NCBI GenBank assembly: GCA_023245195.1
Contig: JAHFKU010000001.1
Span: forward strand, 27,662 to 91,661
Reading direction: 5' to 3'
DNA length: 64,000 bases
Origin: Candidatus Staskawiczbacteria bacterium
GTDB taxonomy: Bacteria; Patescibacteriota; Minisyncoccia; Minisyncoccales; Staskawiczbacteraceae
The notes beneath the pieces were generated by a model. The model searched no databases. It was not told the DNA's origin and saw only the letters and a list, made by a program, of their open reading frames with translations. Below are positions 35,151-59,845 of the stretch, piece after piece. Positions within the stretch are counted from its first letter, which is position 1. Every line of letters starts with the position of its first letter. A program made the translations under genes and the position numbers.

Positions 35151-35173
35151 GCAAAACTAATAACTAAAAATAT

Positions 35174-35984: not shown

Positions 35985-36008
35985 AGTGTATCATTTTTAA
36001 TTTACCAC

Positions 36009-39000: not shown

Positions 39001-40364
39001 CTTCCTACACCCTTCCTTCATTTACCACTAACACGATTAATGCCTCTTCTACCGTTATCTATCTCTCAAATGCGACTACGACCGTAACCTCGTTAACCTA
39101 CGGCAACCTCAGCCTGATGCCAAAGATGACCACCGGAGTCGGAAGTCTTACTTACACCATGCCATCGAGCACCGTCAGCATCACCGGCAACTTTAACATC
39201 AAACCCACCGCTTCCAACGCGAGTCTGGCTCTCACCGTCAACTTGGCCACTTCCTCAAACACCGTCACCGGCACCACCACCATCCAACCCGATTCCACCA
39301 ATAGTCCCACGGCCAAGTTAGCTTCCACCTCTTCCAACTACAACCTAACCACCGGCAAGGTAGACATCGAATCCAACGGAACCTTGGATATTAATAATTC
39401 CACCCTCACCATTACCGGAACCTCGGGAACGTTATTCACGAGAGTGGGAACCTTCACCATCGGAGGTACCAGTACCACCACCTTTTCGGGCAATGGAGAC
39501 GCCACCTTAAATTCCGGATCGATAACATTCGATGCCATGACTAATTCTGGAACCGGAACCAAAACCCTCGGAGCCGCCATCACCACCGGGGGAGCGTTGA
39601 CGATTAGCGCGGGGACAATCGATGTTTCAGCCAGCGGCTGCTCTTCCGCTTCTTGTGCTGTTAATGTTGCGGGAAATTTTGCAAATTCCGGAACTTTTAC
39701 TGCCCGCACCGGTACAGTCACTTTTAATGGAACTAGTCAGACGATTTTTGGATCTACTTCTTTTTATAATTTTACCAAATCCGTCAGTTCTGCCGACACC
39801 TTAACTTTTACGGCCTCGTCTACCCAGACTATTGCCGGAACTCTTACGCTCCAGGGCGCTTCCGGTCAGCTGCTTTCATTGGTTTCAAGTTCGAGCCCGA
39901 CCCAATGGAATATTGATCCCCAAGGAACTCGGACCATCGGTTATCTAGATGTTAAAGATTCCAACAACACCAATGCTACGGCAATTACGACATCGGGGTT
40001 TACTATTACTGATTCCGGCCACAATACTAATTGGACATTTAGCACCTCGGGAACGACTCAACAATATGCCGGCGGACGAGTAATATATCTGCCAAAATCT
40101 GAAAAACCAAAAAATCCTATTTTGGTAAATCCTCAATATTTCTTCATTCGTTATTTGGGGCCCGGCGATAGGGGAGAGGATGTACTAATGCTTCAAACAT
40201 TACTTTTGCAACAAGGATTTTTTCCCGCCACTGTAATTATGAATGGTTATTTCGGATCGATAACCAAATTGTCAGTTAAAAAATTTCAGGCCAAATATGG
40301 TATTCGCCAAACGGGAAATGTCGGACCGCTCACCAAAAATGTTTTGAATACTTTAGAAAAATAG
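36009..40364 (+). CDS. Giant S/T/G-rich beta-helix surface protein 1 (~1450 aa) with C-terminal peptidoglycan-binding domain
   Basis: Signal anchor; N-terminal C..DDGTNDSNFNWTD..W..CNGSYPG..NGNSDTVTI module; T/S/G-rich beta-solenoid repeats; C-terminal PG_binding_1 (LMLQTLLLQQG...GYFGSITKLSVKKFQ). The track GTG at 35961 would translate a MITE remnant, so the ATG at 36009 is preferred. Confidence 0.7.
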   Translation: MAFKKISTSVIFAGIFTCTVVFFYLPATPLKIQEARAYACYDDGTNDSNFNWTDTSIWAGCNGSYPGSPANGNSDTVTIGNTNQSGNTFTLNTSSITIASLIIGPISHGGTLKLNGNTLNVNGAVTIKTAANCSFASDLQVGTGTLNATGLITIENTAADSSNCDADLDASTGTITASGGITFLFTAGASADLRLTTTGATTINLTGAVTGAGDLSINSATTLVSTGTSSLGQTATWGKLSIPSGTLTMGAFAISFAGTTSLTGGTLAVSSATGTKTFTGAVTCTTGSFDLSGFATVTSFAAGITANCTTFNTGTGTAAFSADQSLAGSTNITFGGTVTPASTKTITNNNTGTVTVSGALTLTGNWTQGANSTLSLGATPTGSGTFDTSTNTPNTVKYTATSTLKAPSSSYYNLTITGGTVTTIAVTVTNNLVVSGGTLSGTSNITVNGGGVTGDGTITMSAPSVFLVDGTGNFGGATGWTFYDLTFGDGSGATTTTATGAGSITVTNTQTVAANQTLNAGSKTWNLTGVAVSTSSTYVQGCVNTNASNSVTCTMSSNITAGNLLVVSGSTAANLTATFSSSSGVSCTWNTITSGIANSGVPFNYALAYCLVPSTGAETIQISWSGSSSFSDITIAEYSNTSGGFAPGFDKSSNAVVTGDSTTCSTGTTATLSQANELVIALCHGWNGNATIGTVSGYTKRTTSERSSNNNGWYDKDVTSTTGVSWSATIGSDKSIGLIATFMKSGITGSQSLTVNGTFTASTSTFAFQNDMALTIPALTYYNLTLSPTITAARTYTFAGVTTVSNNFDINPTASSALALTTNLGGTLTVTGSTTIERTTSATSTLDTLSASNYALSSGSITISTGGTFTSNNSVITLTGTSGTLFTKTGTLTAVGTTSEWDVTSASGSPTLLSASTTLHILKINAAATVINLGAAFTTDNNSGNKLYVASGVLNQENRTITAGTSGTLQLDSGGTLCLGGTTSATTATCDSGATQTTSYTLPSFTTNTINASSTVIYLSNATTTVTSLTYGNLSLMPKMTTGVGSLTYTMPSSTVSITGNFNIKPTASNASLALTVNLATSSNTVTGTTTIQPDSTNSPTAKLASTSSNYNLTTGKVDIESNGTLDINNSTLTITGTSGTLFTRVGTFTIGGTSTTTFSGNGDATLNSGSITFDAMTNSGTGTKTLGAAITTGGALTISAGTIDVSASGCSSASCAVNVAGNFANSGTFTARTGTVTFNGTSQTIFGSTSFYNFTKSVSSADTLTFTASSTQTIAGTLTLQGASGQLLSLVSSSSPTQWNIDPQGTRTIGYLDVKDSNNTNATAITTSGFTITDSGHNTNWTFSTSGTTQQYAGGRVIYLPKSEKPKNPILVNPQYFFIRYLGPGDRGEDVLMLQTLLLQQGFFPATVIMNGYFGSITKLSVKKFQAKYGIRQTGNVGPLTKNVLNTLEK

Positions 40365-40433
40365 TTTTCCACAATTTTCATCTTGACTCGTTTTTTTGAA
40401 AAGTTATAATGAAAGTAGCTCTGAAGTTCCGAA

Positions 40434-40600
40434 AGGCTCACCAATTAAGTATTGTTCTACTGCACATTAAATCTTTTGGTTAAAAATTTCCAAAAGCTCG
40501 GCGGCTTATCGATTCTCACTGATAAGCTTTCTCGCTTTTGATAATTTTCAACTTCAAAACTTTTAATTTTCGTCACGAAAAATACTTAATTGGTGAGCCT
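40434..40600. mobile_element. MITE-B copy (~167 bp) between giant gene 1 and the RAYT
   Basis: Perfect 20-bp TIRs AGGCTCACCAATTAAGTATT / AATACTTAATTGGTGAGCCT; core ~85% identical to the 33129 copy. Confidence 0.65.
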
Positions 40601-40705
40601 CATAATATTCTATATTAATTTTCTTAAGGGAGTTCAATATCTGTTCCGGCTGTGGCCGCGACTTGAGAACACCCACTTATATTTTTCATAGAAATATAAT
40701 AAGGG

Positions 40706-40768
40706 CATCAGAGCAACAAAAAGGTCGCATCCGTGCGATTTTTTTGTTGCTCTGATGCGATGTTTAAT
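40706..40768. repeat. Large perfect hairpin (17-bp stem) upstream of the RAYT; candidate IS left-end structure
   Basis: CATCAGAGCAACAAAAA-GGTCGCATCCGTGCGATT-TTTTTGTTGCTCTGATG. Confidence 0.5.
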
Positions 40769-40789
40769 GATAAAATACCTATATAATAT

Positions 40790-40812
40790 CTTGCGAGGTC
40801 ATACCTCGCAAG
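40790..40812. repeat. REP hairpin copy 1 (CTTGCGAGGTCATACCTCGCAAG), 14 bp upstream of the RAYT ATG
   Basis: Perfect 10-bp stem with ATG/CAT in the loop, which is shared by copies 2 and 3. Confidence 0.7.
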
Positions 40813-40825
40813 ATTTATAAAATTT

Positions 40826-41578
40826 ATGTCTTCAAAAAGACCACAATTAGTTAACGATGAATTTTATCATGTTGTCCTAAGAACTGTGGGTGATAGCGTT
40901 GTTTTCGAAAAAGAAGATGATTTTTATCGTGGCATTTTTTCTATTTATGAATTTAATAATGTCAACCCTGTAAATATATGGTTGAGAAGACAGCAACGTA
41001 AAAAGGAAAAGGCAATGGAAGATCTTGTAAAATCAGATTCTGTAAATTTGCGAGGTATGACCTCGCAATACTCTGAACAACTAGACAGAAGAGATAAGAT
41101 GGTGGAGATTTTATGTTTTTCTTTTATGCCGAATCACTTGCATCTTTTACTGCGCCAATTAAAAGATGATGGAATTACTCATTTTATGCAAAAAGTTGGT
41201 ACTGGCTATGCAAGATATTTTAATCAAAAATACAATCGCAAGGGGCATCTTTTCAGCCGTTTTCGAGCAGTTCATATTAAAACTGATGAACAGTTGAAAA
41301 ATACATTTACCTATATCCACACTAATTTAATCGCTTTAATCGAGCCAGGGTTTAAGGAAAAAGGATTAAAAAATCCCAAGAAGGTAATAGAATTTTTAGA
41401 AAATAGTAAACGCCACAGTTATCTTGATTATCTTAATAAAAAGAATTTTCCTTCGGTCACAGAAAGAGAATTTCTTCTAAACATATTAGGAGGTCCGGAT
41501 GGTTGCCGGGAAGAAGTAAATAATTGGGTAAATCATAAAAAAGAGTTGAAAGATTTTAGTAATGTTTTTTTAGAATAA
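40826..41578 (+). CDS. IS200/IS605-family HUH tyrosine transposase, REP-associated (RAYT-like)
   Basis: N-terminal YHVVLRT, HUH motif NHLHLLL, and catalytic-Tyr region TYIHTNLIALIEPG. Identical REP hairpins lie upstream, inside and downstream. Confidence 0.8.
   Translation: MSSKRPQLVNDEFYHVVLRTVGDSVVFEKEDDFYRGIFSIYEFNNVNPVNIWLRRQQRKKEKAMEDLVKSDSVNLRGMTSQYSEQLDRRDKMVEILCFSFMPNHLHLLLRQLKDDGITHFMQKVGTGYARYFNQKYNRKGHLFSRFRAVHIKTDEQLKNTFTYIHTNLIALIEPGFKEKGLKNPKKVIEFLENSKRHSYLDYLNKKNFPSVTEREFLLNILGGPDGCREEVNNWVNHKKELKDFSNVFLE
41048..41068. repeat. REP hairpin copy 2, inside the RAYT coding sequence
   Basis: TTGCGAGGTATGACCTCGCAA, translated in frame as NLRGMTSQY. Confidence 0.7.
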
Positions 41579-41592
41579 CTATTCTAAATTGC

Positions 41593-41635
41593 AAACAAAA
41601 ACTTTGCGAGGTATGACCTCGCAAAGTTTTTGTTT
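41593..41635. repeat. REP hairpin copy 3 with extended 20-bp stem, downstream of the RAYT
   Basis: AAACAAAAACTTTGCGAGGTATGACCTCGCAAAGTTTTTGTTT. Confidence 0.7.
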
Positions 41636-41886
41636 CTTCTGGGAAGTTATCCACAGTTTTACGGTGGTTTTTAGTATATTTCACATCATTAAAATATGGT
41701 AAAATGAACGAATAATTTTATATTTTTTCCAGCTTTTTTAAATGCCTCCCAAAAAACGCAAGCATAATATTATAACCATAAAAATAAAAGATAAAAATAC
41801 GGTTGCAAAAGCTCCGGCAAGTCTTTATGTGCGCATTGTTTCTCCTGCGCCGGCGCATAAATTATGGTTGCTTAATCTTTTTAGTT

Positions 41887-41957
41887 CTCAATTGCAAAAC
41901 TTCCGTTTTAAAAGTTACTTTTTTGGTCTTTTTCCCACAAAAGATTTTCGTGATTCA
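41887..41957. repeat. Internally deleted MITE-A remnant in the 5' leader of giant gene 2
   Basis: Matches the left 45 bp (…CCGTTTTAAAAGTTACTTTT…GGTCTTTTTC) and right end (AAAGATTTTCGTGATTCAG) of the 26831 copy. Confidence 0.6.
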
Positions 41958-41975
41958 GTGTTTTTTAAAGTTTTT

Positions 41976-44900
41976 GTGGCGGAATTTTGGCATCTTAAAA
42001 ATACCGCCCGCACCAATATTAAATCTATTGCCCTGGTTTCTTCCCTTTTTATTTTTTCTTTAACACTAACAACCGGCAATTCATTTATTTCAACCTACCA
42101 AATACATCAGCGGGATTACCGCACCATTAAAGATGTTGTCATCAAACAACTGTCGCCGGCGGTTATAAATCAGCCTACCCAATACACCGTTTTAGTCAAG
42201 CAAAGTTTAATTACCAAAGGCAAGAAGGGACAGTATTTGGTAAAGCTTCCAAAAGGCGCCACTAATATCAGTGTTAAAACCATCTTAGCCGATCAAGCCA
42301 AACAAATTCTTTCAAAAGAAACTCCAAAAATCACCAGCCTCTTTTCTAATCTTAAAAATCCTTTATCTTTTACAAAACCTTCCCATTCGGTTTCTGTCAA
42401 ACCCAAAAACGGCCAATTTCTTTTAGCTTCACTTGATGAGTCGGGCTTGCCAGAAACTCCACCAGCGCTAGAACCCGTAGCAGTTGAGTCTCTGCCAGTT
42501 GAACTTCCACCGGCCGCAGAACACGCAGCTGATCCCGTAAAAACCCAAGAAGAATCCGCCGTTTCTGAATCTGCGCCAATTCAGGAAGAGCCCGTAACTT
42601 CCGATGTTCGCGTTATTAAAACTAAGGATGCTACCTTTGTAGATGTTTCTTCTCAAGCGCCGCCAGCGCCAGAATCTGTTACAGAAAATAATAGTGAAGC
42701 TTCTGATGCGCCTGTTGTTCCCGATGCGCCCGCTGCAAATGATGCTAACCAAGATTCTACAAATCAAGATATTGCTGATTCTCCTGAAATTGTTTCCGGA
42801 GAAGTTCCCGCCTCCGATAAATCTTCGGCAGACAAGCCAGCAGACAAAGAAAATAAGGAAAATTCTGGCCAGAATAATCCTGACAACAAACTCAAAAAAG
42901 AAGAGTATATTAAAATTGATTATCAAATCCAGGCAGCCGTAATTACCGAACAAAAAACTAACCATGGGAAAAATGTTACCGTTTCCGCTCCCAATGAAGA
43001 TCCAGAACATCCTCTTACCAACGTGTTGGCTTTTACTGCGATTCCCGAAATTTTTAATATTGGCCAGGAAGATAACATTCAAATTAAGTGGACCAACAAT
43101 CAAGATCAGCCAATGCCCTTTACGGCCCACGATACTAATGGCAATGGAAAGCTTGATTACCTAGAATGGGTAGTTCCGCATTTATCCGAACAAGAATTTA
43201 ACATTATTTATATTTCTAAAGCTTTTTTGCTTGACCAGGATAAAAATGTTCTTGAAGATATTTATCCTATTGTTAAAGAACAGGATGGCACTTTTCAGGC
43301 TGTTACCCAAGGCCAGTATGTCCGTGTGACGTTCATAAAAAATCTTACCCAAAATAACGATATTACGTTGTATGCCCGGCCCACTGACCCAAACCAGCCA
43401 GTTACCATAAAAGTTTACTCTGCTTTGACTGATCAACTTATTACTACCTTTGATGTAATTGATCACGAAGATACCTATCGGGTTTTACTGACAAACTTAG
43501 AACAAGACACCGACGTCTTTGACCTAAAAATCACCAACGCTAACGCTGACATTGATTTTATTGTAGATCCGGGTAACGCTTGTGCAACTAATACTACTGG
43601 CACAGTCAATTGGAGTGCCGCGGGAACTTGGACAAGCTGTGGCGGTGGCTATCCTGGCCAAAGTGGAAACAGCGATACGGTCACTATAGCTAATGCAGCG
43701 GTTGCAGTAACCGGCGATGTTACGGTTACCGTCGATACGATTACGTTTACGGGTGGTAATGCATCCGCATCTATTAATATTAGCAACGGTATAACTATTA
43801 CAGCAACGGGTGCTGCTACGATCAATGCCCCGACCTCGGCTTCTATAACGAAAGAAATTGCAGTAGGTGGTGGTGCTTTGAGTGTTGGTGGACTCTTTAC
43901 CCTGGCTTCTGGTAGCTCTTCTACTAGAATTTCTAAACTTTCAGTTGGTACAGGAACTGCTACTCTTTCTGCGGGTTTGACCTGCACCGGATCAGCAGAA
44001 ACTTTTACCGTTGCCAGTGGCGGAACTTTTAATTTCACTGGTACCATGAGTGCTGGTTGTCTAACCGTTACTATAAATTCTGGATCCACTACTAATTTTA
44101 GTGGTACCGTTCAGCTTGATGGGGCTTATACTTTTGGAATTGTAACCGTTAATAGCGGAACAACAACTATGGGAGCTGTTGCTATTACGTTTGCCGGTAC
44201 CACTACTCTGGGTGGCGGCACCCTGGCGGTTTCCAGTGCCACGGGAACTAAAACATTCACCGGTGCCGTCACTTGCACCACCGGCAGTTTTGATTTATCT
44301 GCTGCCGCTGCCGTCACCAGCTTTGCCGCCGGTATCACCGCCAACTGTACTACGTTTAACACCGGATCAGGTACTGCAACGCTAAGTGCAACTCAATCCC
44401 TGGCTGGTTCTACTAATATTACTTTTGGTGGAGCTTTAACGGTTTCTGCGGGAACTACCACCAATAACAATAGTGGAACCGTTTTATCTACGGGAGTTTT
44501 AACTCTTACTGGTAACTGGGCTCAGGGAGCAAATTCCACTTTGTCTATGAATAGTACTAATAGTGGTTCGGGGACCCTAGATGCTTCTACTAACACTCCA
44601 AACACCGTAAAATATAATGCCACCGCTACCTTAAAAGCCCCAACAAGTTCTTATCATAATCTTACTATCACAGCCGGTACCGTTACTTCTGTGGCAGTTA
44701 CGATTAGCAACGACTTAGTTGTTAGCGGGGGCACGTTTTCTGGTACCGCTAGCATTACGGTAAATGGAGGAGATGTTACTGGTGATGGAACTATTACCAT
44801 GACCGGAGGAACGTTTTTACTAGACGGCACCGGAAATTTCGGAGGCGCTACTGCTTGGACATTTAATAATTTAACCTTTGGGGATGGTAGTGGAACTACG

Positions 44901-47900
44901 ACTACCACCGCCACGGGAGCCGGAGGAATCACTGTTACTGGTGCAACAACCGTAGCCGCAAATCAAACACTAGATGCCGGATCTAAAACATGGAATTTAA
45001 CCGGATCTGTATCTACTATTACCTTTCGCGCAGAAGCCCAGGATATTAATACTGGTACTAATTGTAATCCCGGTGAACCAGCGGGTACCGTTGCCAATGA
45101 TTTATTGGTAGGAATGGTTTGGGTTGGTTCTGCCGCAGGTACCACGCCAAGTATGCCCACGGGATGGACTTCTTTATATAGCGGTATTTCTTCTAATAAT
45201 GATTGGAGATATAACGTTGGCTATATAGTGCGTGGCAGTTCAGCTGCTGCTACCACATTTACTAATACTAATCACTATCGTGAATGTTTTATTATTGGTT
45301 TCTCTGGCGTTAGTACTACAGGTACCATCGATGCCCAATCTTCTAGTGGCACTTTGAGTAATGCGAGTGCTCATAACCCGGATCCGCCAGCTGTAACTGC
45401 GGTATCATCTGCTGCAATGGCGATTGCATTGGGATGGAATGAAGCTGGTAACGCAGGGCCGGGAACTACCAACTGGACCGCACCGACAAACTATACTATG
45501 AGGTCAACTGATCCAAGTAATGGAAATGGAGTTGCTATAGCAAGTCGTCTTTTGACTAGTTCAGGTAGCGAAAATCCCTCTGCTTTTGGAAACGTAGGTT
45601 CGGGTACCACTGATTATTGGGATGGGGCAACATTTACCCTTACTCCCGCAACACTTACTCCACTAACCGTTAACGGCACTTTCACGGCCAGCACCTCAAC
45701 GGTCGCTTTTCAAAATGATATGGCTTTAACCATTCCCGCATTAACGTATTATAATCTCACCCTCACCCCCACCATCACCGCCGCCCGCACCTACACCTTC
45801 GCCGGCGCCACCACCGTCAGTAACAACCTAGATATCAACCCCACCGCTTCTTCCGCCCTGGCTCTGACCGCGAACCTTGGAGGAACCACTACGGTTACTG
45901 GCAGTATTACTATTGAAGGCACGACATCAGGAACCTCAAAGCTGGATACGGTATCGGGCTCTAATTATTCTCTTACCGCTGCTTCTATTAATATTACTTC
46001 CGCCGGCACGTTTACTCCCCAGGCTTCCACGGTTACTCTAACCGGAACCTCGGGAACCCTTTTTACTAAGGCTGGCACGTTCACCGTTGCCACTTCTACG
46101 TTCGTTGTCACCTCTTCTTCTGGCCAGCCATCGCTGTTATCAGCTGCTACCACGTTCCACATTTTAAAAATTAATACCACCGGAGGTTCCACGGTTATTA
46201 ACGCCAATCAAACCATTACCATTGATGATGCTAGTGGAGCCAAGCTCTGGATTGCCGGAGGCGTGCTTAACGACTCAGGTTATGGCATTTCCACGTCTGC
46301 TTCCACAACCAATACCCTTCAAATAGATTCGGGAACTACACTGTGCCTTGGCGGAGCTTCCACGAATACTTCCACTACTTGTGATAGCAACGCCACTTCA
46401 ACTACCTCTCGCACCCTTCCTACGTTTCAAACCTATACCCTCGACTCCGCCTCCACCGTCATCTATCTTTCCAACGCCGCCACCACCGTCACTTCCAAAA
46501 CCTACGGCAACCTCAGCCTGATGCCAAAGATGACCACCGGAGTCGGAAGTCTTACTTACACCATGCCATCGAGCACCGTCAGCATCGCCGGGAACTTTAA
46601 CATTAAGCCCACCGCTTCCAACGCGAGTCTGGCTCTCACGGTCAACTTGGCCACCGCAAGTAACACCGTCACCGGCACCACCACCATCCAACCCGATTCC
46701 ACCAACAGTCCCACCGCCAAACTCGCTTCTACCTCTTCTAACTACAACCTAACCACCGGCAAGGTAGATATTGAATCCAACGGAACCTTGGATATTAATA
46801 ATTCCACTCTCACCGTCACCGGAACCTCGGGAACTCTTTTTACCAGAGTTGGCACCTTCACCATCGGAGGCACCAGTACCACCACCTTTTCGGGCAACGG
46901 AGACGCCACGTTAAATTCAGGTACGATTACCTTTGACGCGATGACCAGTTCCGGGACGGGAACAAAGACGTTGGGTAATGATATTACTACGGGAGGTGCT
47001 TTGACTATTTCAGCCGGTACGTTACAACTTTCCACATTAAGTCTTACTGCCAATTCAACCACCTCCCTCACCGGCACTCTCAACGACAACTCCGCTACCG
47101 GAACAAATCTCTTTGTCGGCGCCGTCACTATTAATAGCGGCGGAGTCTGGACCGAAACCAACAACCCCGCTTTTGAATTCAGGGGAGGATTAACCGAAAA
47201 TAGTTCTTCTGGATTTACTTCAGGAACTGGAACTTATACTTTTAGCACTAACGCTCAAACGATTTCGGGATCCCAATCTTTTACGATTACCAACCTTACT
47301 AACAGTGTTACCAGCTCAACCGGATTAACATTTTCTGGTGCTCAACCGACGGTTACCACGTTGACGCAAGGATCAAGTGCCCAATTAACTTTCAGCGGCA
47401 CCGTGCCAACCATTACCACTCTAACCGCAACGGCTTCTTCAAATACCGTTTCATATACTTCCACGAGTTCCCAGACCACCGTTGCCGCTACTTACGTTAA
47501 CTTTATAAAATCCGGCGCTGGAGGTACTGCTACTTTGGGGGGCAATACCACGTTAAATGGAACTCTTACTATTTCTTCCGGTACACTGCAGTTATCTACC
47601 GCCAACCTTTCTGTTACGGGTGCTTCGTCTATCACTGGAACTCTCAATGACAATTCTGCTACTGGAACTAATACCTTTACCGGAGCTGTTACTATTAATA
47701 GTGGCGGAGTCTGGACCGAAACTAACAACCCAGGATTTACGTTTCAAGGTGGACTGACCAATGACAGTTCATCGGGCTTTACTTCTGGTACCGGAACTTA
47801 CACGTTTGATACTAATGCGCAAACGATATCTGGTTCCCAATCCTTCACCATTACCAATCTTACCAATAATGTTACTTCTTCAACTGGACTAACTTTTTCT

Positions 47901-50900
47901 GGCGCCCAGCCGACGGTTACCACGTTGACGCAGGGATCAAGTGCTCAACTTACGTTTAGCGGCACGGTTCCAACGATTACTACTCTAACCGCAACAGCTT
48001 CGTCAAATACCGTTAGCTACACTTCCACGAGTTCCCAAACTACCATTGCCGCCACCTATGTCAACTTTGTAAAATCTGGCTCCGGCGGTACTGCCACGTT
48101 GGGAGGTGATACCGTTTTAAACGGTACTTTAACAATATCTTCGGGTAGCCTTCAGCTTTCTACTGCTAGTTTTACTGCCACCGGAGCATCGTCTATTACC
48201 GGAACTTTAAACGACAACAGTGCCACGGGAACTAACATTTTCATTGGCGCCGTCACGATTAACAGTGGCGGAGTCTGGACCGAAACTAACAATCCTGCTT
48301 TTGAATTTAGGGGAGGACTGACTAATGATAGTTCTTCTGGTTTTACTTCCGGCACCGGAACCTACACCTTCAGTACCAACGCCCAAACGATATCTGGTTC
48401 CCAATCTTTCACGATTACTAATTTGACTAACAGTGTTACCAGTTCCACCGGACTTACCTTTTCTGGTGCCCAGCCGACCGTGACCACATTAACCCAGGGA
48501 AGTAGCGCGTACCTTACTTTTTCTGGTAACACGGTTCCAACTATTACTACGCTAACAGCCACGGCTAGCGGGAATACGGTTGAATATAGTGCTGCCTCCC
48601 AAGCCATTAAAGTTGTTTCGTATGTTAATTTGACGCTAAGCGGCAGCGGTACTGCCACCGGTGCGGTTACTACCGTTACCGGAGCTTTAAATATTTCGGG
48701 AACCGTGTCTTGGTCCGCCGATGCTATTACCAGCACCATGACTAGTGTTACCGTAAATACCACTGGGACTTTAACCCTGGGAGCGAACATGGCTACCAGC
48801 GGTGCCCTTACCGTAACGAAAGGAACTTTTAGCGCATCGGGTAGCAACTATACGGTTACCGCCGCTTCGGTATCTTCAGCAAATACCAACACCCGCACGA
48901 TTACGATGGGGTCGGGCCTTTGGACATTAAATGGAACGGGAACTGTTTGGGATACTTCAACAACGACCAATCTTACCTTAACTTCTTCGGGAACGATAAA
49001 AATAACCGATACCAGCAGTACCGCAAATACTTTTTCCGGAGGAGGAGTGACATCCTTTAATAATATTTATTTTTCGCGCGGGTCAAGTACGGCTTCAAAT
49101 ACGATCGCAGGAAGCAACACCTTTGCTGATTTTAAAGATGATGGAAGCGCCGCTCATTCCATATTATTTACCACGGGCACTACTCAAACCGTAACCACGT
49201 TCACGGTTTCCGGTACTTCCGGCAATTTGATTACTATTAACAGCACCACTACCGGAACCCACACTCTTTCCAAAGCATCGGGAACGGTTTTTTCTGATTA
49301 CTTAAGTGTTCAACATTCAATTGCTACTGGCGGCGCATCTTGGTATGCAGGGTCACATAGCACCGATAATAATTCCGTAACAACTGCCGGAAGCGGTTGG
49401 ATATTTGCTAATGCCCCTTGCACCTCTTTGGCGACTGGTAATTGGAATACCGCCGGCACTTGGGATTGCGGGCATGTACCAACGACGTCAGATCCAGTCA
49501 TCGTTGCAGCAAGCCACGTGGTTACCATGGATGTAAATTCGGCTTCTTTGGGTACCATTACGATTAATGGCACGCTAAATACCAGCGATGGTACGAGCCG
49601 ATCGTTGAGCGGAACCACGTTGGCCATTGGTGCTGTTGGAACGCTTACTGCCAACGCCTCTGTCATTACTCTTTCTGGTACTTCTGGGACACTTTTTGCC
49701 ATTACATCCGGCGGTACTTTTACCAATGGTACGTCGGAAGTGGTGATAACCAGTGCCGCCGATCTTACCCTTAATTCAACCGCTACTTCTTTTTACAAAC
49801 TAACCTTCAATAATTCTGGAAATACCACAACATTGGGCGCGGCAACTACGGTAGATAATAATTTGACGATCACGGCCGGAACTTTGCAATTAAGTACTTT
49901 GGGCCTAACTGTTACCGGCACCACCTCCCTCACCGGCACCTTAAACGACAACTCCGCCACCGGAACAAATCTCTTTGTCGGCGCCGTCACTATTAATAGC
50001 GGCGGAGTCTGGACCGAAACCAACAACCCCGCTTTTGAATTCAGGGGAGGATTAACCGAAAATAGTTCTTCTGGATTTACTTCAGGAACTGGAACTTATA
50101 CTTTTAGCACTAACGCTCAAACGATTTCGGGATCCCAATCTTTTACGATTACCAACCTTACTAACAGTGTTACCAGCTCAACCGGATTAACATTTTCTGG
50201 TGCTCAACCGACGGTTACCACGTTGACGCAAGGATCAAGTGCTCAACTTACGTTTTCTGGAAGTATGCCGACGATCACCACCTTAACAGCTACCGCCAGT
50301 GGTAATACCGTCAGTTACACTTCTACCGGATCACAAACGGTTAAAGGGACGACGTATGTCAACTTAACCATTGATAAATCTGGCCAGACAGCAACCTTGG
50401 GCGGTGATACCACGGCTAATAATAATGTAACTATCACGGCTGGCACCTTAGATGCCGATAATACCAATAATTATAATCTTACGGTTGGTGGCACGTGGTC
50501 AAATTCCGGCACTTTCACTCCACGACAGGGAACATTTACTCTTACTGGCACTTCCACATTTTCTGATACCACTTCATTTTATAATTTTGCCATTAATGGT
50601 TCCGGAAAAACGGTCACCCTTGGCGGAGCTTTAACTGCTTCAAATAACTTAACTATCACCGCCGGCACCTTAGATGTTTCAGCTTCTGGTTGTTCTTCAG
50701 CTTCTTGTGCAGTTTCTGTTGGCGGCACGTGGTCAAATAGCGGTACCTTTACTGCTCGAACAGGAACCGTTACCCTCACCGGAACTTCCACATTTTCTGA
50801 TACTACTTCGTTTTATAATCTGACAATCAACGGAAGCGGAAAAACGGTCACGCTTGGAGGAGCTTTAACTGCTTCAAATAATCTAACCATCACCGCTGGA

Positions 50901-53900
50901 ATCCTGGATGTTTCAGCTTCTGGTTGTTCTTCCGCCTCTTGTGCAGTTTCTGTTGGCGGTAACTGGTCTAATTCCGGAACCTTCACCGCAAGATCCGGCA
51001 CCGTTACGTTAACTTCAACTTCAAGCAGTGCTACCTTAGATTCGGGTGGCAGCAGCTTTTACAATCTCACCCAAAATGGAACGGGTGGTACTTACACTCT
51101 GCAAGGTGGTCTTGGAACGAGCAACAATTTAACTATCACCGCCGGAACGCTGGATACCAAATCAACATTTAATTACGGAGTTTCTGTTGGCGGCACGTGG
51201 TCGCGAAGCGGTACTTTTACCGTAAGAAATGCTAATTTCACCCTTACCGGAACTTCTACGTTTTCTGACACGATGAGTTTTTATAATTTCATTATTAATG
51301 CTAGTGGCAATACGGTTACCCTCGGTGCGGCTTTAACCGCCACCAACAACTTGACTATCACTGCTGGAACCCTGGATGTCTCGGCTTCTGGCTGTTCTTC
51401 CGCTTCTTGCGCAGTTTCTGTTGGAGGAAATTGGTCAAACTCCGGAACATTTACTAAGCGCACGGGAACGGTTACCTTAACTTCCACTTCTTCGGGCGCC
51501 ACCCTAACTTCCGGCGGCAGTAGTTTTTACAACTTAACCCAAAATGGAACCGGTGGTACTTACACTCTGCAAGATGCTTTATCGGCAACTAATAACTTAA
51601 CGATTACCGCCGGAACGCTAGATACCAAAGCCAGTTCTAACTACGGCGTCACGGTTGGTGGCACCTGGTCTAATTCTGGTACCTTTACGCCACAGCAAGG
51701 AACGGTCACCTTAACCGGAACTTCTACGTTTTCTGATACCACTTCTTTTTACAATATTACTATTAATGCCAGCGGCAATACCGTCACGCTTGGCGGAGCT
51801 TTAACTGCCACCAACAACTTAACCATCACCGCCGGAACTCTGGATGCTTCCGCTAGTGGTTGTTCGTCGGCTTCATGCGCTATTTCAGTTGGAGCTAACT
51901 TTTCAAACTCTGGAACCTTTACGGCAAGAACCGGTACGGTCACCATTACTTCCACTTCTTCAGGAGCCACACTAACTTCTGGCGGCAGCAGTTTTTACAA
52001 CTTAACCCAAAATGGTTCTGGTGGAACTTATACCCTGCAAGATGCTTTAGCTACTACTAATAACTTAACCATCACAAATGGAACTTTAGATGTATCGGCT
52101 TCTAACTGTTCTTCTGCTTCTTGTTCCGTCAGTGTTGGAGGCAACTTCTCAAATGCTGGTACCTTTACCGCCCGAAGCGGAACCGTAACATTAACTTCAA
52201 CGTCAGGAAGCGCTACGCTAAGTCCCGGAGGAACTTCATTTTATAACCTCACTCAAAATGGAAGTGGTGGAACTTATACTTTACAGGGAGGCTTAGGAGT
52301 TACCAATAATTTAACCATCACTGCCGGAACATTGGATACCAAAGCCAGCTCAAACTATGGTGTTACCGTTGGCGGCACCTGGTCTCGATCAGGAACCTTT
52401 ACGGTAAGGCAATCTAACTTTACTCTTACCGGCAACAATACGTTTGCCGACACGATGAGTTTTTACAATTTCATTATTAATGGCTCGGGTAAAACCACAA
52501 CTCTTGGTGCTGCCTTAACTGCTTCAAATAACTTAACCATCACCGCTGGCACCCTGGATGTTTCAGCCAGTGGTTGTTCCTCGGCTTCGTGCTCGGTCAC
52601 GGTTGCTGGAAACTTCTCCAATTCAGGAACCTTTACCGCCCGAACTGGCACGGTTACACTTAATGGCACGAGCCAGAAAGTATTTGGTTCCACCACCTTT
52701 TATAATTTCACAAAAAATATTGCCTCGGCTTCCGCTGACACCTTAATGTTTGAAAACACCAAAACCCAAACCGGCGCTTCCGGCGGAACCTTCAGCTTAG
52801 TGGGCGCTTCCGGAAAAGTGCTTACCCTCCGATCTATGGATTCTTCTGGAACTCAGTCAGATGGTACAGAGTGGAATCTTACGGTAAACGGCAGCCAAAA
52901 TGTTACCTATGTTGACGTTAAAGATTCCAATGCCTCCGGCGGAACGGCTATCGCTCAAACCAATTCCACGAATTCGGGCAACAATACTAACTGGACATTT
53001 AACACTGCCCCGACATTTTCTTCTATTTCTAATACCTCTGGTTATATTAAATCCGGAGGCACCGTAACTTTTACTACCACCGCCAGCGACCCTGATTCTG
53101 GCGATACTGTCACTCTGTACGTCTGCAAGGCCAACGATTTTACTGGCAGTGCTTGCGGATCGGGGGGCACGTGGTGTTCTTCTTCAGCTTCCACCACCAA
53201 TCCTTCGTGTAGTTACACGGTCCAATCTTCTGATACTGACGGCTCGCACACTTATTATGGAAATATTATAGATAATAATAGTTCTCAATCTTCGTCTAAT
53301 CCAAGATCAGGTACGTTTACCACTGATTCTACCGCTCCCACGGTTGATGCGGGAACTGATCAGTCAAAATCTGCCAGCTTCACCCAAGACGCTACGGTTT
53401 CTGATGCTACAAGCGGTATCGCTAGCTACCAGTGGAGCAAGCAATCGGGAGGCGGGACAATTACCTTTGGAACCGATACGGCCGAAGATACCACTATTTC
53501 TGCCAGTGCTGCCGGCACTTATGTAATTAGGCTGACCGCAACTGATAACGCTGGCAATTCCAATTACGACGAATTTACTCTTACCTGGACAGTTACATCT
53601 TCAAGCAGTGGCGGCAGTGGTGGCGGAGGCGGATCTCATTTTAGCGCTTTAGACAAGCCTCAAGGAAACTTTTCTCTTACTATTAATAATGGGAGCAGCA
53701 TAACTGCCAGTCAGGATGTTACCTTAAATATGATCGGGGTAGGCAGTGATGTAAAAAGCATGTCAGTTTCCAATGATCAGAATTTTGCCGGCGCGATTCA
53801 AGAAGCTTATCAAACAACAAAATCTTGGAGGCTTACTGATGGAGAGGGTCTAAAAACGGTCTATGTTAAGTTTTTCACTGCCTATGGGGTGGCTTCTGAT

Positions 53901-55331
53901 GTGATTACCTCAACCATCAATTATACGACCCAGCCTCAAAATCCTATTAGCCAAATTATTGACCAGATTGGGCAAGGTGTTACGGAAATTAAAGATAATA
54001 TTGGTAAGATATTTACTCTAAAACCGCCGGCTCCGCCAGCTTTGCCGCCAGTAGAAGAAACCGTAAAGAAGGCCGCGCCTCTTTCATTAAAAGGCAAATG
54101 GAATCTTTTGGCTTTTGATTCAATCTGGGAATTCCTTTTCGCTCCTTTGCCAACCGAAACAAAATCGTTGGCCAAAAAATTACCCGAAGTTAATGAATTG
54201 TTCAAGCAAACTGGAATTGTAACGGTTAATTCAACGGTTCAAAAATTACAAGGGGTTGAATTGACGGTTCCGGGATTAAATAAAAGAACGATTGTGCAAA
54301 AAATCGGTGGCGGCGGAACTATTCCCAAAGCAGAGCCTATTGAAGGTGGTAATTTAACGGCTCCAAAATTACAAGGCGGGGGATTAGCAAAAACGGAATT
54401 AGCGCCAGTTCAATTTGCGTTGCCAAAAAATATTCCCTTGGCCCAAATCGGGGCGAATATCAAAAAGGTTATTCCAACTGAAATTGTCTTTGCTAGAACC
54501 GCTAACGAGCTGATTGATTTTAATATTATTTTGTCTATCAATGACCAGGGAAAACTGCAACAACGAATTAATACCATTTCTGGCCAAGAAATTAAGCTGG
54601 CCGTAAAACCCGATGGGCCGGTCAGCAGTGTAAAAGGATATTTGGTTTTAAAATCAAAACAGCCAGCGCCAACCGCCTTTGAATTACCACGCAACATTTT
54701 CTCGGCATCATTGCTTTTTTCAAATCCTGATTTAGTGGCTTCTTCACAGGGCGCGCCAAAAGTTGAAACTCAATTATTATTAGATGAATTTGATTATCAA
54801 GACGAAGACAAAGATGGAATTTGGACTGCCAACATTAAAGCTCCAGCAGTTGATGGCGAATACGAAGTCACCACGATTATGAAGTACAAAGATATCAAGG
54901 TTGGAGATAAAGAAATAAGATTGGTCGTGGTGGTGGACCCGGAAGGCTATGTTTACAGCAGTGTGATGGGCGGGGAATTGCGTATTAATGGAGCGATCGT
55001 TTCTTTGTACTGGCTAAATCCCGAAAGCAAACAATACGAAATTTGGCCGGCGGCCGATTTCCAACAGGAAAATCCCCAAATTACCAACAAAACCGGTAAG
55101 TACGCATTTTTGGTGCCCGAGGGATTGTACTATATAGAAGTGGCGGCGCCCAACTATGCTACGTTCCAGTCTGAAGTTTTGACCGTCAAGCAAGGTAACG
55201 GCATCCACATGAATATTGAATTGAAAAGCAAGAATTGGTGGCTGGCCTATTTTGACTGGAAAACTATCTTATTGGCTTTGATATTTTTATTATTGTGTTA
55301 TTTAATCATTCGCGGTAAAATTAGAAAATAA
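41976..55331 (+). CDS. Giant S/T/G-rich beta-helix surface protein 2 (~4450 aa) with C-terminal TM anchor; paralog of protein 1
   Basis: Signal anchor; acidic P-rich linker; a module with the same N-terminal motif as protein 1 at ~aa 610; long near-identical tandem repeat arrays; Ig/PKD-like domains near the C-terminus; C-terminal TM helix. The track start at 41742 reads through a hairpin leader and a MITE-A remnant, so the in-frame GTG at 41976 is preferred. Confidence 0.7.
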   Translation: MAEFWHLKNTARTNIKSIALVSSLFIFSLTLTTGNSFISTYQIHQRDYRTIKDVVIKQLSPAVINQPTQYTVLVKQSLITKGKKGQYLVKLPKGATNISVKTILADQAKQILSKETPKITSLFSNLKNPLSFTKPSHSVSVKPKNGQFLLASLDESGLPETPPALEPVAVESLPVELPPAAEHAADPVKTQEESAVSESAPIQEEPVTSDVRVIKTKDATFVDVSSQAPPAPESVTENNSEASDAPVVPDAPAANDANQDSTNQDIADSPEIVSGEVPASDKSSADKPADKENKENSGQNNPDNKLKKEEYIKIDYQIQAAVITEQKTNHGKNVTVSAPNEDPEHPLTNVLAFTAIPEIFNIGQEDNIQIKWTNNQDQPMPFTAHDTNGNGKLDYLEWVVPHLSEQEFNIIYISKAFLLDQDKNVLEDIYPIVKEQDGTFQAVTQGQYVRVTFIKNLTQNNDITLYARPTDPNQPVTIKVYSALTDQLITTFDVIDHEDTYRVLLTNLEQDTDVFDLKITNANADIDFIVDPGNACATNTTGTVNWSAAGTWTSCGGGYPGQSGNSDTVTIANAAVAVTGDVTVTVDTITFTGGNASASINISNGITITATGAATINAPTSASITKEIAVGGGALSVGGLFTLASGSSSTRISKLSVGTGTATLSAGLTCTGSAETFTVASGGTFNFTGTMSAGCLTVTINSGSTTNFSGTVQLDGAYTFGIVTVNSGTTTMGAVAITFAGTTTLGGGTLAVSSATGTKTFTGAVTCTTGSFDLSAAAAVTSFAAGITANCTTFNTGSGTATLSATQSLAGSTNITFGGALTVSAGTTTNNNSGTVLSTGVLTLTGNWAQGANSTLSMNSTNSGSGTLDASTNTPNTVKYNATATLKAPTSSYHNLTITAGTVTSVAVTISNDLVVSGGTFSGTASITVNGGDVTGDGTITMTGGTFLLDGTGNFGGATAWTFNNLTFGDGSGTTTTTATGAGGITVTGATTVAANQTLDAGSKTWNLTGSVSTITFRAEAQDINTGTNCNPGEPAGTVANDLLVGMVWVGSAAGTTPSMPTGWTSLYSGISSNNDWRYNVGYIVRGSSAAATTFTNTNHYRECFIIGFSGVSTTGTIDAQSSSGTLSNASAHNPDPPAVTAVSSAAMAIALGWNEAGNAGPGTTNWTAPTNYTMRSTDPSNGNGVAIASRLLTSSGSENPSAFGNVGSGTTDYWDGATFTLTPATLTPLTVNGTFTASTSTVAFQNDMALTIPALTYYNLTLTPTITAARTYTFAGATTVSNNLDINPTASSALALTANLGGTTTVTGSITIEGTTSGTSKLDTVSGSNYSLTAASINITSAGTFTPQASTVTLTGTSGTLFTKAGTFTVATSTFVVTSSSGQPSLLSAATTFHILKINTTGGSTVINANQTITIDDASGAKLWIAGGVLNDSGYGISTSASTTNTLQIDSGTTLCLGGASTNTSTTCDSNATSTTSRTLPTFQTYTLDSASTVIYLSNAATTVTSKTYGNLSLMPKMTTGVGSLTYTMPSSTVSIAGNFNIKPTASNASLALTVNLATASNTVTGTTTIQPDSTNSPTAKLASTSSNYNLTTGKVDIESNGTLDINNSTLTVTGTSGTLFTRVGTFTIGGTSTTTFSGNGDATLNSGTITFDAMTSSGTGTKTLGNDITTGGALTISAGTLQLSTLSLTANSTTSLTGTLNDNSATGTNLFVGAVTINSGGVWTETNNPAFEFRGGLTENSSSGFTSGTGTYTFSTNAQTISGSQSFTITNLTNSVTSSTGLTFSGAQPTVTTLTQGSSAQLTFSGTVPTITTLTATASSNTVSYTSTSSQTTVAATYVNFIKSGAGGTATLGGNTTLNGTLTISSGTLQLSTANLSVTGASSITGTLNDNSATGTNTFTGAVTINSGGVWTETNNPGFTFQGGLTNDSSSGFTSGTGTYTFDTNAQTISGSQSFTITNLTNNVTSSTGLTFSGAQPTVTTLTQGSSAQLTFSGTVPTITTLTATASSNTVSYTSTSSQTTIAATYVNFVKSGSGGTATLGGDTVLNGTLTISSGSLQLSTASFTATGASSITGTLNDNSATGTNIFIGAVTINSGGVWTETNNPAFEFRGGLTNDSSSGFTSGTGTYTFSTNAQTISGSQSFTITNLTNSVTSSTGLTFSGAQPTVTTLTQGSSAYLTFSGNTVPTITTLTATASGNTVEYSAASQAIKVVSYVNLTLSGSGTATGAVTTVTGALNISGTVSWSADAITSTMTSVTVNTTGTLTLGANMATSGALTVTKGTFSASGSNYTVTAASVSSANTNTRTITMGSGLWTLNGTGTVWDTSTTTNLTLTSSGTIKITDTSSTANTFSGGGVTSFNNIYFSRGSSTASNTIAGSNTFADFKDDGSAAHSILFTTGTTQTVTTFTVSGTSGNLITINSTTTGTHTLSKASGTVFSDYLSVQHSIATGGASWYAGSHSTDNNSVTTAGSGWIFANAPCTSLATGNWNTAGTWDCGHVPTTSDPVIVAASHVVTMDVNSASLGTITINGTLNTSDGTSRSLSGTTLAIGAVGTLTANASVITLSGTSGTLFAITSGGTFTNGTSEVVITSAADLTLNSTATSFYKLTFNNSGNTTTLGAATTVDNNLTITAGTLQLSTLGLTVTGTTSLTGTLNDNSATGTNLFVGAVTINSGGVWTETNNPAFEFRGGLTENSSSGFTSGTGTYTFSTNAQTISGSQSFTITNLTNSVTSSTGLTFSGAQPTVTTLTQGSSAQLTFSGSMPTITTLTATASGNTVSYTSTGSQTVKGTTYVNLTIDKSGQTATLGGDTTANNNVTITAGTLDADNTNNYNLTVGGTWSNSGTFTPRQGTFTLTGTSTFSDTTSFYNFAINGSGKTVTLGGALTASNNLTITAGTLDVSASGCSSASCAVSVGGTWSNSGTFTARTGTVTLTGTSTFSDTTSFYNLTINGSGKTVTLGGALTASNNLTITAGILDVSASGCSSASCAVSVGGNWSNSGTFTARSGTVTLTSTSSSATLDSGGSSFYNLTQNGTGGTYTLQGGLGTSNNLTITAGTLDTKSTFNYGVSVGGTWSRSGTFTVRNANFTLTGTSTFSDTMSFYNFIINASGNTVTLGAALTATNNLTITAGTLDVSASGCSSASCAVSVGGNWSNSGTFTKRTGTVTLTSTSSGATLTSGGSSFYNLTQNGTGGTYTLQDALSATNNLTITAGTLDTKASSNYGVTVGGTWSNSGTFTPQQGTVTLTGTSTFSDTTSFYNITINASGNTVTLGGALTATNNLTITAGTLDASASGCSSASCAISVGANFSNSGTFTARTGTVTITSTSSGATLTSGGSSFYNLTQNGSGGTYTLQDALATTNNLTITNGTLDVSASNCSSASCSVSVGGNFSNAGTFTARSGTVTLTSTSGSATLSPGGTSFYNLTQNGSGGTYTLQGGLGVTNNLTITAGTLDTKASSNYGVTVGGTWSRSGTFTVRQSNFTLTGNNTFADTMSFYNFIINGSGKTTTLGAALTASNNLTITAGTLDVSASGCSSASCSVTVAGNFSNSGTFTARTGTVTLNGTSQKVFGSTTFYNFTKNIASASADTLMFENTKTQTGASGGTFSLVGASGKVLTLRSMDSSGTQSDGTEWNLTVNGSQNVTYVDVKDSNASGGTAIAQTNSTNSGNNTNWTFNTAPTFSSISNTSGYIKSGGTVTFTTTASDPDSGDTVTLYVCKANDFTGSACGSGGTWCSSSASTTNPSCSYTVQSSDTDGSHTYYGNIIDNNSSQSSSNPRSGTFTTDSTAPTVDAGTDQSKSASFTQDATVSDATSGIASYQWSKQSGGGTITFGTDTAEDTTISASAAGTYVIRLTATDNAGNSNYDEFTLTWTVTSSSSGGSGGGGGSHFSALDKPQGNFSLTINNGSSITASQDVTLNMIGVGSDVKSMSVSNDQNFAGAIQEAYQTTKSWRLTDGEGLKTVYVKFFTAYGVASDVITSTINYTTQPQNPISQIIDQIGQGVTEIKDNIGKIFTLKPPAPPALPPVEETVKKAAPLSLKGKWNLLAFDSIWEFLFAPLPTETKSLAKKLPEVNELFKQTGIVTVNSTVQKLQGVELTVPGLNKRTIVQKIGGGGTIPKAEPIEGGNLTAPKLQGGGLAKTELAPVQFALPKNIPLAQIGANIKKVIPTEIVFARTANELIDFNIILSINDQGKLQQRINTISGQEIKLAVKPDGPVSSVKGYLVLKSKQPAPTAFELPRNIFSASLLFSNPDLVASSQGAPKVETQLLLDEFDYQDEDKDGIWTANIKAPAVDGEYEVTTIMKYKDIKVGDKEIRLVVVVDPEGYVYSSVMGGELRINGAIVSLYWLNPESKQYEIWPAADFQQENPQITNKTGKYAFLVPEGLYYIEVAAPNYATFQSEVLTVKQGNGIHMNIELKSKNWWLAYFDWKTILLALIFLLLCYLIIRGKIRK
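47040..48560 (+). repeat. Intragenic tandem repeat: about 2.7 units of ~570 bp in giant gene 2
   Basis: Repeated protein unit TLNDNSATGTN.F.GAVTINSGGVWTETNNP.FEFRGGLTENSSSGFTSGTGTYTF.TNAQTISGSQSFTITNLTN.VTSSTGLTFSGAQPTVTTLTQGSSAQLTFSG; >90% nt identity between units. Confidence 0.8.
49920..50345 (+). repeat. Fourth dispersed copy of the 570-bp unit, ~300 bp identical to 47041-47340
   Basis: The run CCTCACCGGCAC...GACGCAAGGATCAAGTGC is nucleotide-identical in both places. Confidence 0.8.
50400..52760 (+). repeat. Intragenic tandem array of alternating ~222/~246-bp units (~468-bp dimer, about 5 copies) in giant gene 2
   Basis: The LTITAGTLD anchor recurs at 50428, 50650, 50883, 51130, 51351, 51598, 51819, 52066, 52311 and 52536. 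Units encode ...DVSASGCSSASCAVSVGGNWSNSGTFTARTGTVTLT... alternating with ...DTKASSNYGVTVGGTWS.SGTFT..QG..TLTG... Confidence 0.8.
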
Positions 55332-55884: not shown

Positions 55885-56060
55885 CACTTTAAATCCCGAA
55901 ATGCCTTCGAGGTATTTTTCCAGAATTTGGAGATAGAAATTTGATAGAATTTTCAGGCTTACGCAACGCGTCCGGCTGAAAATTATAGCAAATTTATAGC
56001 CCAAATTCTGGTAAAAGACCCGAAGAGCGGTTTAAAACGGGCATTTCGGGATTTAAAGTG
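55885..56060. mobile_element. MITE-A copy (~176 bp) with perfect 21-bp TIRs
   Basis: CACTTTAAATCCCGAAATGCC ... GGCATTTCGGGATTTAAAGTG. Confidence 0.8.
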
Positions 56061-56466: not shown

Positions 56467-56586
56467 GAATTTCTAATTCTTAATTTCTAATTTCTATTAA
56501 ATTTTCAATGACCTAATTCCTAAACCTGTTTGAAAATTCACCAAGTTATAAATTTAATAGAAATTAGAAATTAGAAATTGAAAATT
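56467..56586. repeat. Family-4 element directly upstream of rpmB (minus strand)
   Basis: GAATTTCTAATTCTTAATTTCTAATTTCTATTAAATT ... AATTTAATAGAAATTAGAAATTAGAAATTGAAAATT. Confidence 0.6.
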
Positions 56587-57934: not shown

Positions 57935-58050
57935 TTTTCAATTTCTAATTTCTAATTTTCATTAAATTATTAATACGTGAATTTTCAATCACGTTTAGAA
58001 ATTAAATGATTAGAAATTTAATAGAAATTAGAAATTAATAATTAGAAATT
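57935..58050. repeat. Family-4 element filling the whole rpsL-rpsG intergenic spacer
   Basis: TTTTCAATTTCTAATTTCTAATTTTCATTAAATT..CGTGAATTTTCAATCACG..AATTTAATAGAAATTAGAAATTAATAATTAGAAATTCC. Confidence 0.6.
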
Positions 58051-59796: not shown

Positions 59797-59845
59797 TAAT
59801 TGATTAGAAATTATTTAAAAATTCAAAATTAGAAATTAAAAATTC
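59797..59845. repeat. Family-4 half-element immediately upstream of the fusA ATG
   Basis: AATTGATTAGAAATTATTTAAAAATTCAAAATTAGAAATTAAAAATTC. Confidence 0.5.

Follow-up and report, generated by a model that had tools for sequence, protein, structure and literature searches.

The 64,000-nucleotide (nt) stretch analysed in this study (the window; positions 27,662 to 91,661 of contig JAHFKU010000001.1, assembly GCA_023245195.1, from a Candidatus Staskawiczbacteria bacterium) carries an open reading frame (ORF) of 13.6 kb, giant gene 2 (41742-55331, +, in window numbering as throughout), which, according to the ORF list and its translation, encodes 4,529 amino acids (aa) in one intact frame. Its product starts with a signal- or anchor-like N-terminus, followed by an all-beta repeat region rich in Thr, Ser, Gly and Asn (aa ~640-3700) and by a PKD-like domain, and closes with a C-terminal module that ends in a hydrophobic segment. 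The repeat region includes two arrays of in-frame units, A and B (Tandem Repeats Finder, TRF, scores of 689 and 1337), both of them far beyond chance. A preliminary description of this locus presented the repeats as near-identical, very recently duplicated or in concerted evolution, prone to changes in copy number and likely to be mis-assembled. The present analysis points instead to old, diverged arrays under purifying selection, in which gene conversion limited to the conserved core of the units probably occurs from time to time.

Family A includes four in-frame units starting at 47004, 47568, 48132 and 49866, the first three being in tandem with a period of 564 nt. A1 (47004-47567, +) and A2 (47568-48131, +) are modules of 188 aa with an internal-type tail, the tails of the two units being 91% identical in protein. 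A3 (48132-48698, +), which closes the tandem run and reaches 567 nt (189 aa) through a one-codon insertion, has a run-end-type tail. A4 (49866-50420, +), the dispersed fourth module, ends at the start of the B array and combines a pre-B-type tail with a core identical to that of A1. The non-A spacer between A3 and A4 (48699-49865, +) includes a G8-like segment and is collinear with its homologues at two loci of relatives, L003 and L004. This anatomy bears out the three tandem units of about 570 bp and the dispersed fourth copy that had been described. However, the strict identity announced between 49921-50220 and 47041-47340 was read in a register 18 nt off, in which only 87 of 300 positions match; at the true offset of 2,862 nt, which is also the distance from the start of A1 to that of A4, 287 of 300 do.

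Far from being near-identical, A1, A2 and A3 have pairwise identities of only 74-75% in DNA, against 86-90% in protein, over the 131 conserved codons on which their divergence was measured. Almost all their differences are located at third codon positions, with a proportion of synonymous differences (pS) of 0.67-0.70, a synonymous divergence (dS) of 1.7-2.0 and a non-synonymous divergence (dN) of ~0.11, and the conserved serines show one to four switches between the TCN and AGY codon families per pair of units. At sites where the amino acid is identical, the same codon is found in 46-49% of the cases compared to 35% expected from random draws on the codon usage of the gene (z = 2-3), so that a faint trace of common descent is left in these units. 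Active codon diversification that would suppress recombination was rejected, since identical codons are somewhat commoner than random and not rarer.

The B array (50421-52772, +) consists of ten units starting at 50421, 50643, 50877, 51123, 51345, 51591, 51813, 52059, 52305 and 52527 (+), with respective lengths of 222, 234, 246, 222, 246, 222, 246, 246, 222 and 246 nt. They belong to a short type of 74 aa and a long type of 82 aa that carries a CSSASC loop, and follow each other in the order short, hybrid, long, short, long, short, long, long, short, long. The ten or so units previously announced do exist, but their alternation of 222 and 246 nt is not strict, B2 being 234 nt long, and the identity above 90% attributed to them does not hold: their pairwise identities are 48-80% in DNA (median 62%; TRF's own value for this array is 76-82% matches) and 47-89% in protein, with a pS of 0.45-0.81 and a longest common exact run of 26 nt. 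B2 (50643-50876, 78 aa) is a chimera: its front part, which includes the CSSASC loop, belongs to the long type and is 79% identical in DNA to B3, and its back part belongs to the short type and is 85% identical in DNA to B1. This unit is the trace left by an old recombination inside the B array.

Since synonymous sites are almost saturated while the protein has been kept, the A copies and the B units appear to be old duplicates under purifying selection; the very recent duplication initially proposed is hardly compatible with a pS of 0.6-0.8 and a dS of ~1.7-2.0, nor with the presence of the A3 and A4 tail types in other Staskawiczbacteria genomes (see below). According to the opposite view, the repeats would be recent and near-identical, or continuously homogenised, and frequent slippage or unequal crossing-over would generate alleles varying unit by unit. 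This would fit with in-frame tandem arrays in a surface protein, with copy numbers that vary between species and between the two paralogues of the window, with an exact tract of 284 nt shared by two A units and with the breaks of relatives' assemblies inside these genes. However, neither the identities and near-saturation reported above nor the exact runs, of which the longest between tandem neighbours are only 20-29 nt, are those of such repeats, and the tail types kept across genomes indicate old copies. RecA-type recombination, as known from Escherichia coli and Bacillus, requires an uninterrupted identity over tens of bases and drops sharply as sequences diverge. Furthermore, the stability of repeats is much higher when they are impure than when they are pure (PMC3899988). 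Considering together the shortness of the exact runs and the stability of impure repeats, we infer that both arrays are stable: the frequent slippage or unit-by-unit change in copy number that had been predicted is unlikely in either of them, and the view of recent or continuously homogenised repeats as a whole appears very improbable.

The 284-nt tract is the sole exact direct repeat of at least 30 nt in the whole gene. It is shared by A1 (47097-47380, +) and A4 (49959-50242, +), where it covers module aa 32-126, and its offset of 2,862 nt equals 954 codons and is therefore in frame. Its edges are abrupt, identity dropping to ~55-70% on either side, and the chance of 284 consecutive matches at a background identity of 75-85% is 1e-20 to 1e-35. 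The sequence upstream of A4 has only ~62% protein identity to that upstream of A1 (BLASTP with chunked queries). As the tail of A4 and its upstream sequence have diverged from those of A1, and as this tail can be traced elsewhere, the core of A4 seems to have been overwritten within an existing unit. The tract would then reflect a recent gene conversion over an old A4 unit, the most recent event of this kind, and not a new duplication; conversion as the mechanism is what we infer from the pattern of identities along the units.

This view is consistent with the comparison of 32 units from the window, three genomic loci and twelve homologous proteins, in which the core (module aa 32-126) and the tail (module aa 133-188) were considered separately. 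By position, the tails form types that are found again in other genomes: internal for A1 and A2, run-end for A3 and pre-B for A4. The A3 tail has 85% protein identity to that of a unit from another Staskawiczbacteria genome (L004) but 62% to those of A1 and A2. Likewise, the A4 tail is 89% identical to that of the single unit of a homologous protein, P0018, and 80% identical to that of the L003 unit, compared to 64-66% for A1 and A2. Because the A3-type and A4-type tails both have matches in other Staskawiczbacteria genomes, these copies would be older than the splits between the corresponding species. Unlike tails, cores are closest within a genome: within the window, their DNA shows a pS of 0.63-0.67 and a proportion of non-synonymous differences (pN) of 0.04-0.08, compared to 0.72-0.86 and 0.09-0.11, respectively, with L003 and L004. 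At the informative sites of A3, the core sides with A1 against L004 (7:1) and the tail with L004 against A1 (15:3; Fisher p = 0.001). The discordance gives a Fisher p of 2e-6 for A4 compared with P0018, and of 1e-8 for one unit, u3, of a locus from a metagenome-assembled genome (MAG) labelled as Saccharibacteria, L005. Concerted evolution, which had been put forward for the repeats in general, is thus supported only in a narrower form: it concerns the A1/A4 tract and, on statistical grounds, a homogenisation of cores within genomes, which leaves the tails untouched.

The L005 locus carries four modules that are 74-83% identical in DNA, with cores 96-99% identical in protein. An exact core tract of 225 nt joins two adjacent units, and near-identity is patchy elsewhere, in tracts of different ages. 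Such a mosaic, as well as the residues shared specifically within a genome (core sites favour grouping inside the genome by 7:1 and 9:2, and the tails of the same units favour the other genome by 15:3 and 17:2), is not what would be expected if core similarity within a genome only reflected stronger purifying selection or lineage-specific duplications, conversion being then restricted to A1 and A4. It is true that, in every genome, conservation is highest in the cores, with 85-91% protein identity across genomes, and that the A1-A3 cores, with the pS given above, have kept no residual DNA tracts. We nevertheless consider it unlikely that constraint or lineage-specific duplication explains the whole pattern, and occasional gene conversion confined to the core, superimposed on old duplications, would be the simplest reading of these sequences.

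The exact repeat also delimits the part of the gene in which the assembly calls for caution. A collapse or mis-joining of the whole repeated region by short-read assembly had been considered likely. Since the arrays are diverged and stable, a short-read assembler should resolve them; by contrast, a 284-nt exact repeat is longer than the k-mers used for short reads and than most of these reads, so that the 2,862-nt loop that it bounds could be present zero, one or several times. The caution is therefore limited to this loop, whose count is not fixed by the sequence by itself. Going further, the tract, or the single pass through the loop, could be a product of assembly or of a co-assembled strain. 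Besides the exact repeat itself, this idea draws on the closest relatives, whose contigs end inside the homologous genes (310 nt after the A unit in L003 and ~1.4 kb after it in L004, on a 661-kb contig), and on the homologues of the N-terminal domain, eight out of eight of which are fragments. However, where copies differ by ~25%, assembly has no means of making them identical; its errors are confined to the count or the routing of an exact repeat that really exists. Moreover, the ORF is intact and in frame over both junctions, collinearity with L003 and L004 holds for the order A3-spacer-A4-B, and the comparable 225-nt tract of L005 comes from an independent MAG. An artefactual origin thus seems doubtful, slightly more so than the explanation by constraint.

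A last alternative is that the identical pair represents the template and variable repeats of a diversity-generating retroelement or results from another targeted diversification. Such retroelements are common in genomes of the candidate phyla radiation (CPR). However, no reverse transcriptase was found among the window ORFs scanned, the pair is exact, the flanking mismatches show no adenine bias and the tract aligns collinearly with its homologues in the A2 and A3 cores. A diversity-generating retroelement is effectively refuted by the lack of reverse transcriptase among the ORFs scanned and of adenine bias, and targeted diversification in general is extremely improbable.

Overall, the explanation that we consider likely is that of old diverged arrays under purifying selection, with occasional gene conversion limited to cores, the only length change expected being one of 954 aa. 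In this scenario, old in-frame duplications of a 188-aa module and of a 74-82-aa unit would have made the A and B arrays, respectively, and purifying selection would have kept the protein, with synonymous sites left to drift until nearly saturated. As a result, slippage or RecA-type unequal crossing-over would now find only poor substrates in the tandem copies, and short-tract conversion would now and then copy the conserved core from one unit to another. In the latest event, aa 32-126 of A4 would have been overwritten by the A1 sequence, or the reverse, leaving a 284-nt direct repeat with copies 2,862 nt apart. As this repeat is the only efficient substrate for recombination in the gene, the predicted length change is in frame and of plus or minus 2,862 nt: any present-day change would remove or add 954 aa, giving proteins of 3,575 or 5,483 aa.

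Several points weigh against this explanation. The older homogenisation of the A2 and A3 cores relies on few informative sites (5-9 versus 1-4), and stronger constraint on cores could contribute to it. The L005 modules, for which the sample includes no close relative, might have been duplicated independently after speciation. The direction of the A1/A4 conversion can be read either way, and both the tract and the number of copies of the loop are as given by the assembly. Finally, the identity requirement of recombination is carried over by analogy from E. coli and Bacillus to CPR bacteria, in which it may be different.

Protein-level repetition in this giant CPR surface gene does not imply DNA-level identity and, if the explanation is right, both instability and assembly risk are narrowed to one prediction, the in-frame 2,862-nt (954-aa) change at the 284-nt repeat. 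This explanation would also mean that a widespread 188-aa module without match in Pfam, NCBIfam or PDB has a mosaic evolution, which should be useful for domain curators and for work on surface proteins of episymbiotic CPR bacteria. More speculatively, the architecture itself could be selected, synonymous divergence and position-specific tails stabilising the gene against unequal crossing-over while rare core conversion keeps the functional face of the modules alike within a genome. This extension is unlikely in our view; if true, the modules would co-evolve as a set, for example against a ligand of a host cell or of a phage, without the cost of array instability, and the mosaic of the Saccharibacteria-labelled locus would make it a general rule for an undescribed module family.

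The 188-aa A module is widespread. It matches 671 representatives of 50%-identity clusters at E ≤0.001, including 72 at ≤1e-30, with 1-11 matched stretches per representative, and 105 genome loci were confirmed across phyla (Patescibacteria, Bacteroidota, Gammaproteobacteria, Ignavibacteria, Planctomycetota and others), usually with several copies per very large protein. No match to this module was detected among Pfam, NCBIfam or PDB sequences, including by a profile search of PDB sequences. The named relatives of giant gene 2 belong to Patescibacteria (CPR), the closest ones being two Candidatus Staskawiczbacteria MAGs. In P0018, which is 2,199 aa long, the architecture is the same from end to end, with a single A unit and a single B unit. 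The single A unit of L003 is of the A4 type and stands in a spacer-A4-B order that is collinear with that of the window, and L004 carries one unit in place of A1-A3. Two A modules were found in another homologous protein (P0011), three in a further one (P0010), four in both the window and L005 and one to eight in other homologues. Since the number of modules varies among homologues and paralogues, they are gained and lost over evolutionary time.

Exact direct repeats of at least 60 nt were found in 21 of 79 related loci. In an Ignavibacteriaceae MAG (L012 locus, 8114-11893, contig CAZTKU010000050.1), the giant homologue carries an exact direct repeat of 1,473 nt with a spacing of 2,307 nt and several further exact repeats of 248 nt, indicating that recent segmental duplication does happen elsewhere in this gene family.

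The window contains a second member of the family, giant gene 1 (35961-40364, +; 1,467 aa), which ends with a C-terminal PG_binding_1 domain. It is a compact paralogue, collinear with aa 623-1760 of giant gene 2, with up to 96% identity in protein and 74-84% in DNA, and it joins straight to a B10-type unit, so that it lacks everything from A1 to B9. An exact run of 88 nt between the two paralogues (39095 = 46499) is longer than predicted from the 74-84% background and may result from conversion between giant genes 1 and 2.

The C-terminal module of giant gene 2 (53619-55328, +; 570 aa) shows a weak CarboxypepD_reg-like match (PF13620) and includes the terminal hydrophobic segment. It matches 200 proteins at E ≤0.001 (best 2e-152, 98-100% query coverage), with 34-50% identity among the 120 matches listed. 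These homologues are stand-alone Patescibacteria proteins of ~700-800 aa, annotated as carboxypeptidase-regulatory-like. As the homology covers their full length, the giant protein looks like a member of this family in which a huge shaft has been inserted, P0018 showing the same fusion. Apart from this C-terminal match, only a K319L-like PKD domain (53376-53585, +; aa 3879-3948) and the G8-like segment of the spacer were recognised by Pfam in giant gene 2.

No allele of giant gene 2 was found in any of the collections searched (genomes, metagenomes and proteins). An exact look-up of the 4,529-aa protein gave no record, a scan of genome contigs with the 570 C-terminal aa retrieved no relative, and in a second genome scan the best matches, to single modules, did not exceed ~80% protein identity. 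Metagenome scans with a 32-mer from the exact tract and with the degenerate GGVWTETNNPAFEF motif did not find anything. A protein search with the N-terminal domain gave eight matches, all fragments and at most 60% identical. One locus, L001 (GCA_964521495.1, CAZFTF010000010.1, 10001-20789), was examined as a possible frameshifted orthologue and rejected, since it has only the N-terminal domain in common with giant gene 2, followed by unrelated Gly/Ala-rich repeats. These repeats extend over more than 10 kb after the N-terminal-domain homologue, with weak Glug matches, and are interrupted by scattered in-frame stops, so that they are called as dozens of small ORFs; the stops could be due to sequencing errors, to a pseudogene or to recoding.

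The other genes of the window, almost all located on the plus strand, are those of cellular DNA: SecA, SecD/F, Tgt, MurB, ribosomal proteins S12 and S7, EF-G and cell-envelope sugar enzymes. Whole-window scans found no tRNA gene and no Rfam match at the gathering threshold. An ORF similar to IS200-type Y1 transposases (40826-41578, +; Pfam E = 2.5e-7) lies between the two giant genes. The window also harbours a dispersed non-coding element of 60-140 nt, mostly intergenic, whose copies, direct as well as inverted, share 76-88% identity (26231-26322, 26826-27003, 34274-34444, 41879-41937 and 55915-56059). Because the copy at 41879-41937 overlaps the first 78 codons of the ORF of giant gene 2, the real start of this gene is probably the GTG at 41976, which is followed by a signal-like segment, and not 41742. 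Furthermore, an A/T-rich motif of ~40 nt (TTATAAATTTAATAGAAATTAGAAATTAGAAATT...), with copies at 25228-25268, 33928-33968, 56546-56586, 58010-58050 and 59804-59844, directly precedes four gene starts or more (those of the ORF at 25276 and of the M50 peptidase, S7 and EF-G genes) and could serve as a promoter or leader element common to them. One of its copies, at 33928, also forms an arm of a perfect 42-nt inverted repeat (33928-33969 / 35173-35214). An ORF-free gap suspected at 33.8-35.3 kb was rejected, as three small ORFs are located there, and Rfam matches were only below threshold. Both giant genes (36001-54000) have a G+C content of 42-51% with a negative GC skew, compared to 33-43% with a mostly positive skew in the rest of the window; this shift likely comes from their Thr/Ser/Gly/Ala-rich codon composition rather than from a foreign origin.

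The repeat region would form the modular, all-beta shaft of a giant cell-surface protein, and this shaft may be a beta-solenoid. Its composition, together with the signal-like N-terminus, PKD-like domain and hydrophobic C-terminal segment of the protein, suggests a role as a surface fibre or adhesin. An AlphaFold model of aa 1707-2353 made with no alignment is all-beta with short regular strands. Its top matches in a Foldseek search of PDB, none of them significant, are EspP, IgA1 protease, SepA, EtpA and Ag43, among which are autotransporter beta-helices, and RsaA. In the B array, the filamentous-haemagglutinin 20-aa repeat (TIGR01731, NCBIfam) reaches 17.9 bits, just below the cut-off of 18. 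The proposed fold is weakened by the low confidence of the A-region model (predicted local distance difference test, pLDDT, of 64.5), by this lack of significant Foldseek match and by the single-sequence model of the B array, which is unusable (pLDDT 41.8). No two-partner secretion (TPS) domain or autotransporter beta-barrel was detected with Pfam or NCBIfam, whether the protein was scanned whole or segment by segment.

Taken as a whole, giant gene 2 would belong to a known class, that of modular giant surface proteins whose repeats undergo concerted evolution by gene conversion. Rib/alpha C of Streptococcus agalactiae, SasG/Aap and Bap are Gram-positive surface proteins with tandem repeats that vary in copy number. 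As in these proteins, in-frame tandem structural modules (564 nt for A; 222, 234 or 246 nt for B, all multiples of 3) form the shaft of a surface protein, and module number differs between homologues. However, repeats of the Rib/alpha C and SasG/Aap type are nearly identical in DNA, this identity being the source of their variability, whereas adjacent units are here far below ~95% DNA identity. Giant gene 2 also resembles filamentous haemagglutinin (FHA, two-partner secretion) and autotransporter passengers in its Thr/Ser/Gly/Asn-rich composition and its predicted all-beta structure with short strands; it differs from them by its Patescibacteria host, by its N-terminal signal or anchor combined with a C-terminal hydrophobic segment and by the absence of a significant fold match. 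With the unnamed CarboxypepD_reg-like family of Patescibacteria, it shares a C-terminal region that matches the full length of these proteins, but here and in P0018 this module is fused behind a beta-rich shaft of thousands of residues. Lastly, concerted evolution of repeated domains by gene conversion is a general phenomenon, to which the giant gene conforms by the non-reciprocal copying of tracts between paralogous repeats that its units suggest, by their mosaic structure and by a phylogenetic signal that varies along the unit. It departs from it in that conversion appears rare here compared with synonymous drift and confined to the core, the position-specific tails remaining traceable across genomes.

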